Source: a virus (Duplodnaviria; Heunggongvirae; Uroviricota; Caudoviricetes). Taken from it: a stretch of 37,884 bases of DNA. Under the pieces are notes generated by a model. It did no database searches. It saw nothing but the letters and a program-made list of their open reading frames with translations, and had not been told where the DNA came from. Positions 26,204 to 36,516 of the stretch are shown here, in pieces. The translations under genes and the position numbers were made by a program. The stretch spans positions 1 through 37,884 of the IMG/VR virus record IMGVR_UViG_2537562092_000002; one strand, 5' to 3'. Each line of letters opens with the position of its first letter. Within the stretch, counting starts at the first letter, position 1.

Positions 26204-26674
26204 TCATCGAAGGCATTGCGTCCTGATGTATTCCTGCAAGTAGTTAACCTGCGCGGTTATCCTGTCGATTCCACTTCGGAGACGGTAATAATTGAGTTCA
26301 GCATCTGCTGTAAGTCTTGGGCTTTCTCCATCGCCCATGCTGCTGGCTCCGGTCGTTGACTTTGCACAGGTGGCGGCGACTTGCAGGCGCTTACGCCCAG
26401 CAGAAACATCAGCACGGAGACTTTCGATAGTCGCGTTAGCATCAGCAAGCTCCTTTGTGTATCTTGCGTCGAGTTCTGCTACATCACGTTGACGCTTCCG
26501 CATGTCAGCGATGGTGGCGTTCGCCTTCTCCAGTTCACTGGCCTTGTTATCGCGCTGCTCTTTGTAGGCGATTGCGTTATCACGGTAATGATTAACAGCC
26601 AATGACAGGCAGACGATGATGCAGATAACCAGAGCGGAGATAATCGCGGTTACTCTACTCATTGTTGCCCCCAC
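26204..26674 (-). CDS. Rz: Spanin inner-membrane subunit Rz (i-spanin)
   Basis: [38 protein letters not shown]... closely resembles lambda Rz; follows the endolysin. Confidence 0.85.
26257..26448 (-). CDS. Rz1: Spanin outer-membrane lipoprotein Rz1 (o-spanin), embedded in Rz in another frame
   Basis: [29 protein letters not shown]... has a lipobox (LGVSAC) and Pro-rich segment, wholly inside Rz. Confidence 0.7.
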
Positions 26675-27156
26675 AAACAGACTTCACGCTCAATCTCACG
26701 GCGAGTCATCAGCCCTTTCCATTGCTTACCGCCAGCGTATGTCCAGCGCCGTAGCTGATCACATGCGCCTTTGATATCGCCCTGGTTTATTTTGCGAAGA
26801 AGCGTCGATGTTCTGAAATTTCCAGCACCAACGTTGTAAACGAACGAGTAAAGAGCGCCGCGCGTTGTTTCCGGTATATCGACTTTGATGTACGGGTTAA
26901 TTTGTCTGGCGACAGTGGCAAGGTCTTTATTCAGGAGGGCTTTGCATTCTGCTTCGGTATACGTTTTACCGAGCATAATGTCTTTTCCGGTATGCCCGTA
27001 ACATACAGTCCATACACCAACGATATCTTTATATGGTATGTAGCTGACGCCTTCCAGACCATCGTTACCACTTGGGCCAGTGATTAACACAGATGCTATA
27101 GCAATAGCCCCGCCACCAATAGCCGCAGCAACGGCTTTTCGTAATGATGGAGGCAT
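26659..27156 (-). CDS. R: SAR endolysin (lysozyme, phage 21 R-type)
   Basis: N-terminal signal-anchor-release segment [20 protein letters not shown] followed by a lysozyme domain; matches phage 21 R as recalled. Confidence 0.85.
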
Positions 27157-27371
27157 TATTCACCTCTCGCAGCCTTTCTTCTGTCTTCTCTGATTTTGAA
27201 GTACAGATTTGTCAGATAGGTGAGAAAGCCCAACACAAGGCTTCCAAGCACCCCAATCGCAGCCCACTGTGATGGACTGACCTGATCCAACCACTGCAAA
27301 AACCAGTATCCCGCACTACCAGCGGATGTTCCGTAGGCAATGCCAGTTGAGATTTTGTCCATTGATTTCAT
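27156..27371 (-). CDS. S: Pinholin (phage 21 S-type), dual-start holin/antiholin
   Basis: [71 protein letters not shown] matches S21 (71/68-aa forms from M1/M4). Confidence 0.85.
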
Positions 27372-27489
27372 AGCAACGCCTCCGCCAGTAACGGATTGCG
27401 TAGTTCTTATATTGGGAAGGGAGAAAAAGAAGACCGCAGCATAACTATCACTGATGAATTCAGGACATCCAGTGGCTACGGCTCAGTTA

Positions 27490-27565
27490 TGGTGCTGGTT
27501 AACGGACTTGAACCGCTACCCATTCGCTTACAAGGCGACCGCTCTACCATTGGAGCTAAACCAGC
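27490..27565 (-). tRNA. Phage-encoded tRNA, anticodon UGU (Thr) by manual folding
   Basis: Reverse complement GCTGGTTTAGCTCCAATGGTAGAGCGGTCGCCTTGTAAGCGAATGGGTAGCGGTTCAAGTCCGTTAACCAGCACCA folds as a cloverleaf (7-bp acceptor, GGTTCAAGTCC T-arm, loop CUUGUAA). Confidence 0.6.
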
Positions 27566-27570
27566 ATATT

Positions 27571-27645
27571 TGGCGGGACAGCGTGGACTCGAACCACGAT
27601 AAGAAGGTTAACAGCCTTCCGTAATGACCTTTATACGACTGACCC
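27571..27645 (-). tRNA. Phage-encoded tRNA, anticodon GUU (Asn) by manual folding; slightly degenerate D-arm
   Basis: Reverse complement GGGTCAGTCGTATAAAGGTCATTACGGAAGGCTGTTAACCTTCTTATCGTGGTTCGAGTCCACGCTGTCCCGCCA: perfect anticodon and T stems, loop CUGUUAA, one acceptor mismatch. Confidence 0.5.
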
Positions 27646-27691: not shown

Positions 27692-27736
27692 TTATGCGAA
27701 TAGTGTTGCTCATTTGCTCAATGATGTCAACACGTT

Positions 27737-28282
27737 CTATGCTACATGTTTAATTTTCTCTACACGTTTCCGGTTTTTAAACGCACTATCCAGAACCGGG
27801 TAAATCATAAACAACGAGGCATTGAGGATTTCGTCAACTTCCCGTCGACAGGTTGCGAGCGATGGTTTTTGAATGCGCCCGCCGCCCCGGCATAACATCT
27901 TGCGAGGTCTTGCGACGCGATGATAGTAAGATGCAATGGCGTGCTTGGAAGAGCCGTGGGCGTAGTAGCTGAGGAGGATGCCAAAGGCTTTCTTGTCAAT
28001 GTACATGACGGAATCGACGACCTGAGAAATCAACATTCCATCATCATCATTACACATTGGCCTTGTCATAACTCTTCCCGGCTCTACGCTCTCCATGAAC
28101 TTAGCTATTACGCTGCTCATGCGCTTTTCCAGACGACCTGAATAAACCCATGCGCCCCACAGTTCAAGCCAGCCATTCAGCCACTCGTGCTGTTCTTTGG
28201 TGAGGTTTAGTTCTCTTATGCCCATGCGCCTTCTCCCTTGTGATCTGGAATGGTTTTTACTGAGAACGTCATGCGGCCTCAC
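27737..28282 (-). CDS. Q: Late-gene antiterminator Q (phage 21/82-type); start may be MGIRELNL at ~28225
   Basis: ...[27 protein letters not shown]... and Cys-rich C-terminal region resemble lambdoid Q proteins; sits upstream of the late terminator and lysis genes. Confidence 0.75.
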
Positions 28283-28790
28283 TTCTGCTGTTTCGCAGGT
28301 CTTTGAGTTTCTGCTGATACTCCGCCTTGATGGCCCTGCACTCTTCGACAGTCCAGCGATGGCGGTTATGGTTTGATTCGATTTCGTCTACTGCTTCCTG
28401 CCCGATGCGGCTAATCAGTTCGACGCGATACGGAACGAGATTTCCGCTTTTGTGCTGGTTGCACACCACGCATTGCTTGTGAATATTGCGTTCATCAAAT
28501 CGGAGTTGAGGTGCCGCAGCAGTTGTCCGGTAATGTCCGGCATCCCACTGAGCAGACGTGAGCGTTCCGCAAGAGATACATGGTAAGTCGCGGTCTCTTT
28601 CTCTGATGAAGGCGTTTACGGCTTGTTGGGCTTGTTTAATCCAGTAACTGCGGGGCTTTAAGGCGAGTTTTCTAATCTTAAGTTTATCTTTCTGTTCCTT
28701 CCACTGAGAGACTGCTGCATCGCTAATGCCTAACGCTTTAGCTACCGCACGCTGGGTTCCGAAGTGGTCGATAACATCTTTCTTGTACAT
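28269..28790 (-). CDS. In-frame fusion: P22-type Cro N-terminus (~31 aa) joined to lambda NinG/Rap C-terminal ~140 aa (deletion product)
   Basis: [32 protein letters not shown] matches P22 Cro; [43 protein letters not shown]...NSRSEAA matches the lambda NinG C-terminus. Confidence 0.75.
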
Positions 28791-31333: not shown

Positions 31334-31405
31334 GCGCGGCGTTACCGCATACCAATAACGCTTCACTCGAGGCGTTTTTCGTTATGTATAAATAAGGAGC
31401 ACACC

Positions 31406-31570
31406 ATGCAATATGCCATTGCAGGGTGGCCTGTTGCTGGCTGCCCTTCCGAATCTTTACTTGAACGAATCACCCGTAAATTACGTGACGGATGGAAACG
31501 CCTTATCGACATACTTAATCAGCCAGGAGTCCCAAAAAATGGATCAAACACTTATGGCTATCCAGACTAA
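31406..31570 (+). CDS. cIII: CIII (FtsH inhibitor stabilising CII)
   Basis: Translates to [54 protein letters not shown], matching lambda CIII; below the ORF-track length cutoff. Confidence 0.85.
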   Translation: MQYAIAGWPVAGCPSESLLERITRKLRDGWKRLIDILNQPGVPKNGSNTYGYPD

Positions 31571-31682
31571 ATTCACTATCGCCACTTTTATTGGCGATGA
31601 AAAGATGTTTCGTGAGGCCGTCGACGCTTATAAAAAATGGATATTAATACTGAAACTGAGATCAAGCAAAAGCATTCACTAA
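31539..31682 (+). CDS. kil: Kil (host cell-division/FtsZ inhibitor)
   Basis: [47 protein letters not shown] matches lambda Kil; the ORF-track entry 31413..31682 is the same frame extended upstream. Confidence 0.85.
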
Positions 31683-32053
31683 CCCCCTTTCCTGTTTTCC
31701 TAATCAGCCCGGCATTTCGCGGGCGATATTTTCACAGCTATTTCAGGAGTTCAGCCATGAACGCTTATTACATTCAGGATCGTCTTGAGGCTCAGAGCTG
31801 GACGCGTCACTACCAGCAGATCGCCCGTGAAGAGAAAGAGGCAGAACTGGCAGACGACATGGAAAAAGGCCTGCCCCAGCACCTGTTTGAATCGCTATGC
31901 TTCGATCATTTGCAACGCCACGGGGCCAGCAAAAAAGCCATTACCCGTGCGTTTGATGACGATGTTGAGTTTCAGGAGCGCATGGCAGAACACATCCGGT
32001 ACATGGTTGAAACCATTGCTCACCACCAGGTTGATATTGATTCAGAGGTATAA
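31637..32053 (+). CDS. gam: Gam (RecBCD inhibitor)
   Basis: [36 protein letters not shown]...[10 protein letters not shown] matches lambda Gam. Confidence 0.9.
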
Positions 32054-36426: not shown

Positions 36427-36486
36427 CTTATTGATTTAAATGGTGCCGATAATAGGAGTCGAACCTACGACCTTCGCATTACGAAT
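36424..36486. repeat. Prophage attR: 63-bp direct repeat overlapping the 3' part of intact thrW
   Basis: Identical to 6606..6668. Confidence 0.85.
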
Positions 36487-36516
36487 GCGCTGCTCTACCA
36501 ACTGAGCTATATCGGC
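36441..36516 (-). tRNA. thrW: tRNA-Thr (anticodon CGU), thrW
   Basis: Reverse complement GCCGATATAGCTCAGTTGGTAGAGCAGCGCATTCGTAATGCGAAGGTCGTAGGTTCGACTCCTATTATCGGCACCA is a canonical 76-nt cloverleaf with CGT anticodon, adjacent to proA as in E. coli. Confidence 0.9.

Follow-up and report, generated by a model that had tools for sequence, protein, structure and literature searches.

The Toprim nuclease Old of phage P2 kills lambda-infected cells by excising the anticodon arm of the Escherichia coli threonine transfer RNA (tRNA) tRNA-ThrU(UGU), with cuts 3' of the C in each of the paired CNG motifs (positions 28-30 and 40-42), and phage genes for tRNA-Thr(UGU) suppress its toxicity (Govande et al., NAR 2025, PMC12445682). 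The tRNA-Thr of phage 21 protects cells that have both Old and Gam, and resists cleavage in vitro by means of a shorter stem and altered CNG motifs (PMC12445682), and the Old-sensitive phages HK97, HK542 and Bas34 plate again in the presence of the tRNA-Thr of phage HK446, but not of that of E. coli (10.64898/2026.07.10.737580). According to the latter work, the resistant phage tRNAs replace the cleaved host tRNA rather than inhibit Old, and in both studies Gam is a trigger of Old (PMC12445682; 10.64898/2026.07.10.737580). Here we analyze a tRNA-Asn(GUU) gene and a tRNA-Thr(UGU) gene that lie side by side between the late antiterminator gene Q and the holin gene in a stretch of 37,884 nucleotides (nt) of Caudoviricetes DNA, the whole of which is called the window (IMG/VR record IMGVR_UViG_2537562092_000002, positions 1 to 37,884). 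It is likely that the two genes form a functional pair, expressed late and in dependence on Q, in which the tRNA-Thr replaces the host tRNA-ThrU cleaved by Old and also supplies a decoder for ACA codons. The cassette is already known, the function of its Thr member has also been published, and it does not represent a new kind of element.

A second described system is that of phage T5, whose tRNA-Lys/Thr/Asn set neutralises AriB, the nuclease of the PARIS system (PMC11464382, PMC12409363). Two of its three anticodons are common to the window, in which the tRNA bodies are unrelated to those of T5.

The tRNA genes and their relatives

In the whole window ARAGORN calls three tRNA genes, Thr(UGU), Asn(GUU) and a thrW-type Thr(CGU), the first two of which make up the cassette:

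27571..27645 (-): tRNA-Asn(GUU), 75 nt (ARAGORN; Rfam RF00005, 55.3 bits, E=2e-9)
27566..27570 (-): inter-tRNA spacer AAUAU, 5 nt (AACAU in phage 21 and Sf6)
27490..27565 (-): tRNA-Thr(UGU), 76 nt (ARAGORN; Rfam RF00005, 61.2 bits, E=4.9e-11)

Transcription runs from right to left, with tRNA-Asn first and tRNA-Thr second, on the strand common to Q, holin, endolysin and terminase, and both genes encode their CCA ends. The initial annotation, which had been made from the sequence by manual folding, had given the coordinates, the 5-nt spacing, the strand and the two anticodons exactly, and had proposed that the region be examined with tRNA predictors. Both genes are called, and their Rfam scores, well above the RF00005 gathering score of 29 bits, are far beyond chance. 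Covariance-model scores of this kind, and not minimum free energy (MFE) folding, are the relevant test for a tRNA; the MFE folds of the single tRNAs are not distinctive (z from -1.5 to -1.7), and that of tRNA-Thr is not a cloverleaf. An open reading frame (ORF) of 68 amino acids with a TTG start, at 27396-27602 on the plus strand, runs antisense to both tRNAs. It has no Pfam match and no counterpart in the curated annotation of phage 21, and it is spurious, as had been suspected at the outset.

The anticodon arm of tRNA-Asn reads GAAGG-CUGUUAA-CCUUC and that of tRNA-Thr reads GUCGC-CUUGUAA-GCGAA, and the latter stem has only 4 base pairs (bp), as its uppermost pair is the mismatch G27·A43. U33 and a purine at position 37 are present in both 7-nt anticodon loops, and the T-loops, UUCGAGU in tRNA-Asn and UUCAAGU in tRNA-Thr, both agree with the GTTCRA pattern. 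In tRNA-Thr the 7-bp acceptor stem and the 4-bp D-stem are fully paired, whereas tRNA-Asn, which has a 4-nt variable loop and discriminator G73, shows a U4·U69 mismatch in the acceptor stem and a D-stem of 3 bp closed by U13·U22. The acceptor mismatch and the weak D-stem had been noticed before in the tRNA that comes second by coordinate, which is the first to be transcribed. All stem pairs were parsed explicitly by script; a MAFFT alignment of the Asn tRNAs had misplaced the gap in the variable loop. The identity set of asparaginyl-tRNA synthetase (AsnRS) comprises G34, U35, U36 and the discriminator G73, and that of threonyl-tRNA synthetase (ThrRS) comprises G1-C72, C2-G71, G35 and U36. The phage tRNA-Asn has all four of the former and tRNA-Thr has the complete set of the latter, and the two are predicted to be substrates of AsnRS and ThrRS, respectively.

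At 156/156 positions the cassette is identical to the tRNA-Asn/tRNA-Thr annotated in Shigella phage SfI, and it differs by one base from that of HK446 and by two from those of phage 21 and Sf6 (98.7-99.4% identity over 156 nt). The tRNA-Asn is 100% identical in phage 21, Sf6, HK446 and SfI, and the sole difference between the window tRNA-Thr and the phage 21 and HK446 copies is the unpaired nucleotide 26, which is G here and A in the others. In phage 21, Sf6, SfI, HK446, BTP1 and related lambdoid/P22-like phages the cassette has the same layout as in the window, with the late promoter PR' and terminator tR', the tRNAs and the lysis genes following each other and with the same tRNA order and 5-nt spacing. 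From phage 21 the window differs in having G26 instead of A26 in tRNA-Thr, in one base of the spacer, and in the absence of the replication region from the prophage. GenBank annotations of the cassette exist for SfI, phage 21, Sf6 and BTP1 and also for many Salmonella P22-like phages; a description is given in the SfI genome paper, which names Sf6, ST64T, PS3 and phage 21 as further carriers (PMC3636060), and the same slot of the late operon is discussed in the phage L paper (PMC8022706). Among 5,426 complete E. coli genomes, 832 (~15%) contain matches to it.

The tRNA-Thr as a probable replacement for the Old target

At positions 28-30/40-42 the window tRNA-Thr has UCG/CGA, as opposed to CUG/CAG in the host thrU, in addition to G27·A43. 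Thus, the published marks of resistance to Old, the loss of both CNG motifs and a shortened anticodon stem, are found in this tRNA, together with the UGU anticodon that decodes ACA. The UGU anticodon is also that of the published tRNA-Thr21 and tRNA-Thr6, and the shortening of the stem and the loss of CNG are exactly as described for tRNA-Thr21 (PMC12445682). The published anti-Old tests were carried out with plasmid expression and A26 alleles, whereas the window has a G26 allele in its native late-operon setting. One of the functions first suggested for the pair, replacement of host tRNAs cleaved by anticodon nucleases, has found experimental support in the near-identical tRNA-Thr of phage 21 and HK446 acting against P2 Old (PMC12445682; 10.64898/2026.07.10.737580).

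The window also contains a gam gene:

31637..32053 (+): Gam RecBCD inhibitor, 138 amino acids (Pfam Gam, E=1.7e-63)

A prophage of this type encodes, then, both a trigger of Old and a tRNA that blunts Old.

According to the mechanism that we propose, the phage Gam would trigger a P2-type Old, or the related PARIS AriB would act, and the anticodon stem of the host tRNA-ThrU would be cut. The phage tRNA-Thr(UGU) would then be a nuclease-resistant stand-in for tRNA-ThrU, which the host makes from a single gene, and ACA codons would stay readable. The tRNA-Asn(GUU) would probably act likewise, by adding to, or taking the place of, a tRNA that Old and AriB attack as a secondary target, and this role of tRNA-Asn is the weakest step of the mechanism; Old cleaves the host tRNA-Asn(GUU) more slowly (PMC12445682), and for AriB it is a secondary target (PMC12409363).

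Several points weigh against this reading. We infer the presumed anti-Old role of the G26 allele from the phage 21 and HK446 alleles with A26, and late-only expression and excision from the late transcript from the layout of the operon. The rescue obtained with a lone Thr tRNA is partial, with neither lambda plating nor full viability, and HK446 also needs the inhibitor Oad2 (PMC12445682; 10.64898/2026.07.10.737580). The prophage has lost the cro-cII-O-P-nin segment, and use of the cassette in it may therefore be rare. Rescue from AriB needs resistant T5 versions of all three tRNAs, including tRNA-Lys(UUU), the prime target of AriB, which is required (PMC12409363), and there is no tRNA-Lys(UUU) among the three tRNAs called by ARAGORN in the whole window; therefore, the cassette alone cannot defeat the characterised PARIS system. 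With regard to tRNA-Asn, it is devoid of the host CGG/CCG and UAAUC motifs, but this absence is close to what chance would produce, because the phage tRNA-Asn is only 63% identical to asnT and is not derived from it. The paired CNG requires C28-G42 and G30-C40, which are missing from most unrelated stems, and we have downgraded the missing motifs as a sign of nuclease resistance in tRNA-Asn. Moreover, when 245 coliphage tRNAs were screened for suppressors of Old, only Thr(UGU) was enriched and no Asn was recovered (PMC12445682), and our literature searches found no published link between a lambdoid tRNA-Asn and defence.

Distribution of the cassette and content of the slot

The content of the slot was surveyed in 80 viral contigs with a Q gene 98-100% identical to the window Q21. 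The Q21 probe gave only such near-identical copies, which were used for the slot counts, and diverged copies were taken from a BLAST search of phages. The slot contained:

Asn and Thr: 44/80 Q21 loci
no tRNA: 20/80
Asn and Gly(UCC): 6/80
ileZ-like Met(CAU): 4/80
Asn only: 3/80
ileZ-argN-argO, the set of Stx phages: 2/80
Asn, Thr and Gly: 1/80

Thr never occurs without Asn among these 80 loci, and Asn is also kept where Thr has been lost. Outside the Q21 group, HK446 has a lambda-type Q and PR' followed by the same Asn-Thr cassette (locus L093, 1201-1356; NC_019714.1 35097-35252), and in a Klebsiella phage Asn-Phe-Thr-Arg follow a Q of yet another kind. As the same cassette is found with different Q types, it is a mobile insert in a recognised hot slot. 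The 2026 preprint on Old describes HK446 as having a single tRNA and overlooks its tRNA-Asn (10.64898/2026.07.10.737580).

In 933W-type Stx phages this slot, downstream of Q and PR' and upstream of the late genes, is occupied by ileZ-argN-argO, which differ from the window tRNAs in being decoders of AUA, AGA and AGG. The presence of this set in Stx phages is classically explained by the supply of rare-codon tRNAs. The same anticodon pair as in the window, adjacent or nearly so and with Asn first, is found in P1 (L088, 725-878), in N4, where the order is Asn-Ser-Thr (L087, 637-886), and in the SSU5-like phage-plasmid Cyrano (L089, 773-1020). Of the 21 stem pairs of the window tRNA-Thr, 16-17 are also found in their Thr tRNAs, whereas the Asn body differs, with the acceptor GAUGGUG and a regular D-stem, and the genomic context is another one. 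In P1 and Cyrano the Thr tRNA retains the CUG/CAG motif of Old, unlike that of the window, and the P1 Asn retains UAAUCA. In each of the six phage Thr(UGU) lineages examined, the host U39 is replaced by G39.

Codon usage and a possible supply of decoders

The codons of 20 late genes (4,756 codons) were compared with those of 42 K-12 genes (13,958 codons, from a 50-kb sample), with the following results per 1000 codons:

ACA: 14.3 in late genes, 5.9 in K-12, ratio 2.4
Asn (AAC+AAU): 45.8 in late genes, 34.2 in K-12, ratio 1.34
AGA/AGG: 9.9 in late genes, 1.6 in K-12, ratio 6
ATA: 7.6 in late genes, 3.2 in K-12, ratio 2.4
GGA: 15.8 in late genes, 6.5 in K-12, ratio 2.4

ACA accounts for 21.5% of the Thr codons in the late genes and for 11.2% in the host sample (P=3e-5), and the P value for the excess of Asn codons is 4e-4. 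The 2.4-fold enrichment of ACA bears out the idea, also put forward in the initial annotation with a comparison to the host as a check to be made, that such tRNAs match the codon usage of the late genes, and the supply of a decoder for ACA is a plausible added benefit of tRNA-Thr. However, other rare codons are at least as enriched and have no matching tRNA, and thus codon supply does not single out the Asn-Thr pair.

It is possible, although we regard it as rather unlikely, that codon supplementation is the whole function of the cassette and that the tRNAs only raise the level of decoders for late-gene codons, with no role against nucleases. Besides the bias in ACA and the 1.34-fold higher frequency of Asn codons, this would agree with the ACA usage reported for SfI, 17.3% versus 7.1% (PMC3636060), with the use of AAC for 24/25 of the capsid Asn codons in the phage L paper (PMC8022706), and with the finding of rare-codon decoders in the same slot, either ileZ-like Met(CAU) or ileZ-argN-argO in 6/80 loci and Gly(UCC) in 7/80. 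On the other hand, AGA/AGG are enriched 6-fold and ATA and GGA 2.4-fold, yet the cassette includes no Arg, Ile or Gly tRNA, and AAC and AAU are not rare codons, the authors of the SfI paper having seen no bias for Asn (PMC3636060). More directly, extra host tRNA-ThrU gives no protection from Old whereas the phage versions do, so it is the sequence of the tRNA, and not its dose alone, that matters (PMC12445682; 10.64898/2026.07.10.737580). Codon supply and replacement of a cleaved tRNA are compatible, because a low-abundance decoder that is made from a single gene and reads a codon overused by the phage is at once the best target for a nuclease and the best candidate for supplementation, and codon supply fits as a contributing benefit within the replacement of tRNA-ThrU.

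The late-operon setting

The initial annotation had placed the tRNAs on the late-gene strand, downstream of a tR'-like terminator and between Q and the holin, and this arrangement was confirmed by Pfam, by folding and by mapping from phage 21. The region between Q and the holin aligns to phage 21 without relative gaps, and the curated features of phage 21 were transferred directly:

27737..28225 (-): Q21-type late antiterminator gene, 162 amino acids from an internal ATG (Pfam Phage_antitermQ, E=8.8e-25)
27695..27730 (-): late promoter PR', identical to the curated phage 21 features in the alignment
27725-27730 (-): -35 element of PR', TTGACA, mapped from phage 21
27707-27722 (-): Q-binding element ATTGAGCAAATGAGCA, mapped from phage 21
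27702-27707 (-): -10 element of PR', mapped from phage 21
27695 (-): late transcription start, mapped from phage 21
27646..27693 (-): tR', intrinsic terminator of the late leader, which is 50 nt long (hairpin folding at -20.2 kcal/mol, z=-4.18, with UUUUUUUAUUU after it)
27422..27481 (-): hairpin and U-rich tract CUUCUUUUUCU just 3' of tRNA-Thr, found by folding (conserved in phage 21, hairpin part in Sf6)
27156..27371 (-): S21 pinholin/antiholin, with which the protein genes of the late operon begin (Pfam 'Bacteriophage P21 holin S', E=8.6e-36; phage 21 annotation)
26659..27156 (-): SAR endolysin of the R21 type (Pfam Phage_lysozyme, E=7.3e-47; phage 21 annotation)

The Q ORF as listed is of 181 amino acids from an upstream GTG, and the gene aligns with the phage 21 antiterminator CPT_21_63. 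The tR' sequence is the same as the annotated terminators of phage 21 and Sf6, with a base-for-base match to the curated tR' of phage 21; its hairpin ends in U7AUUU, and the next base is G1 of tRNA-Asn. A simple consensus scan for promoters and terminators found neither PR' nor tR', which were placed by folding and by mapping from phage 21, nor a promoter belonging to the tRNAs themselves. Since tRNA-Asn starts directly after the U-tract of tR', leaving no room for a promoter of its own, expression would occur only through antitermination by Q. The two tRNAs and their spacer are the first 156 nt of the late operon past tR'; Q21 would load at its binding element and carry RNA polymerase through tR', and the tRNAs would be made only in late lytic growth. 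Host tRNA-processing enzymes would then cut them out of the late transcript, with the CCA already encoded. Between tRNA-Thr and the start of the holin there are 118 nt, and the fold of this whole spacer is not significant (z=-1.5). The hairpin at 27422-27481 within it could be a second terminator, a protector of the 3' end or a processing site, and its assignment is uncertain.

This arrangement also invites the view that the tRNA folds serve mainly as punctuation, that is, as entry sites for RNase P and RNase E that detach the Q-loaded leader and the terminator hairpin and so shape the stability of the lysis mRNA. The position of tRNA-Asn directly after the U-tract of tR' and the further hairpin 3' of tRNA-Thr would suit such a role, as would the joint transfer of the terminator, the two tRNAs and a 3' flanking stretch of ~65 nt between phages with different Q types and holins. 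We consider it improbable, though. In 20/80 Q21 loci the late operon works without any tRNA in the slot; the anticodons Asn-GUU and Thr-UGU are kept across lineages whose Asn bodies differ, which a purely structural role would not demand; and the rescue activity depends on decoding (PMC12445682).

Integrity and possible role of the tRNA-Asn

It could also be asked whether one or both genes, and above all the mismatched tRNA-Asn, are decaying relics that have no function in a defective prophage. Apart from the U4·U69 and U13·U22 mismatches, decay would be in line with the deletion marked by a Cro::NinG fusion, which removed the replication genes from the prophage, and with the damage seen at related loci, where U33A in Asn and G1A in Thr occur together (L025, L030) and where the Thr gene is degenerate or chimeric (ST160, JLK-2012). 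Nevertheless, the tRNA-Asn is identical in the viable phages 21, Sf6, HK446 and SfI and in 50/61 tabulated copies, and it is retained with Thr, and after loss of Thr, among the 80 Q21 loci. In the diverged Klebsiella copies there are three pair changes in Asn and two in Thr, all of them compensatory on both sides, with no pair broken, and the Klebsiella tRNA-Asn retains both mismatches while the three nearby pairs change. A functional host tRNA, the tRNA-Gly(UCC) encoded by glyT, has the same D-arm (GUAU/UUAC with U13·U22) and the same 4-nt variable loop. The Klebsiella copy preserves both mismatches of tRNA-Asn, and glyT has an identical D-arm; on this comparison of sequences, the mismatches are therefore conserved and tolerated architecture and not decay. 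Since the Thr allele family is in addition experimentally active (PMC12445682; 10.64898/2026.07.10.737580), a cassette of relics is a poor candidate. The suspicion that the tRNA-Asn may be non-canonical holds, then, for the mismatches, which are present; their conservation in the Klebsiella copy and the glyT-like D-arm speak against a defect.

The resemblance to glyT is not confined to the D-arm. In a comparison with 11 host tRNAs, the phage tRNA-Asn was 72% identical to glyT and 63% to asnT, and the spacing Asn-5 nt-Thr mirrors that of glyT-6 nt-thrT in the host (L003, 1174-1330). The pair may have arisen by capture of the host glyT-thrT pair followed by a change of anticodon, which is only a lead.

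Both window tRNAs differ from their host counterparts around the site at which AriB cuts, 40|41, with UAAGCG in Thr where the host has UAAUCA and UAACCU in Asn where the host has UAAUCC. The differences at positions 39 and 41 flank the cut, and the U36-A-A-U39 motif is lost in both. As the window tRNA bodies are only 63-71% identical to those of the host, these substitutions are weak evidence of resistance.

As a tentative proposal, to which we give less credence than to its opposite, the tRNA-Asn could be the other member of a two-tRNA counter-defence module directed at Toprim nucleases of the OLD family, such as P2 Old and PARIS AriB, and not a codon accessory. The nucleases would cleave the host tRNA-Thr(UGU) first and tRNA-Asn(GUU) next. 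Such a module would fit the data because the Asn-Thr pair occurs with its members adjacent and Asn first in lambdoid, P1, N4 and SSU5-like phages in spite of differing Asn bodies, because none of the 80 Q21 loci has Thr without Asn, and because the glyT-like lambdoid Asn and the glyT-thrT-like spacing of the pair hint at capture and remodelling of the anticodons. If this were true, the module would come into play only late, through Q antitermination, at the time when the synthesis of structural proteins is most exposed to loss of tRNA. It raises the question whether two tRNAs are a minimal counter-defence kit of temperate phages. The value of the present analysis lies in filing the cassette correctly and in marking the role of Asn(GUU) as a question; Asn(GUU) and Thr(UGU) occur together in ~15% of the complete genomes of E. 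coli.

Other features of the prophage

The right end of the prophage has the classical P22/SfI-type attachment site next to proA, with thrW directly beside int:

36441-36516 (-): thrW-type tRNA-Thr(CGU), intact, 71.8 bits
35263-36426 (+): int, which thrW adjoins

It is very improbable that the tRNAs compensate for integration by replacing a host tRNA gene disrupted at the attachment site, as the discussion of the 2026 preprint suggests for HK446 (10.64898/2026.07.10.737580) and as the position of the prophage next to thrW, beside int, might seem to support: thrW is intact and of full length in the window, P22/SfI-type integration rebuilds it (PMC3636060, PMC8022706), the anticodons differ (CGU and UGU), the tRNAs lie behind tR' without a promoter of their own, so that a lysogen should express little of them, and the tRNA-Asn would be left unexplained. 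We have therefore rejected this explanation, in view of the intact thrW, the other anticodon and the terminator ahead of the tRNAs.

Upstream of Q, an ORF at 28269-28790 (-) is an in-frame fusion of the N-terminal helix-turn-helix part of Cro with NinG, with the junction at about 28695-28699. In comparison with phage 21 a deletion of ~3.45 kb extends from inside cro to inside ninG, with loss of the 3' part of cro, nutR, tR1, cII, O/ori, P, ren and ninB-F. As a consequence the prophage has no genes for replication, and transcription from PR would continue directly into Q. In none of the 5,426 complete E. coli genomes was the junction found as a contiguous sequence.

Some cassettes at related loci are rearranged. 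One of them (L061, 1359-1512) has a chimeric Thr tRNA whose 5' part equals the phage copy and whose 3' part equals E. coli thrU, followed after 3 nt by a glyT-like tRNA-Gly(UCC). In JLK-2012 (L086, 1581-1734) the Thr gene also has a thrU-like 3' part and is no longer called as a tRNA by ARAGORN. The second tRNA is degenerate in ST160 (L090, about 1581-1652), as it is in the closely related phages L and ST64T (PMC8022706). Judging from these sequences, the variant cassettes suggest recombination with the host thrU-tyrU-glyT-thrT operon.

A gene of SfI that resembles queuine tRNA-ribosyltransferase was considered as a possible link to Q34 in tRNA-Asn and was discarded; the window follows phage 21 in that region and has no ORF of that size. 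The early-left operon of the window contains the lambda cIII thermoregulator RNA element (RF01804), full-length and with a score of 88.5 bits, at 31393-31451 (+).

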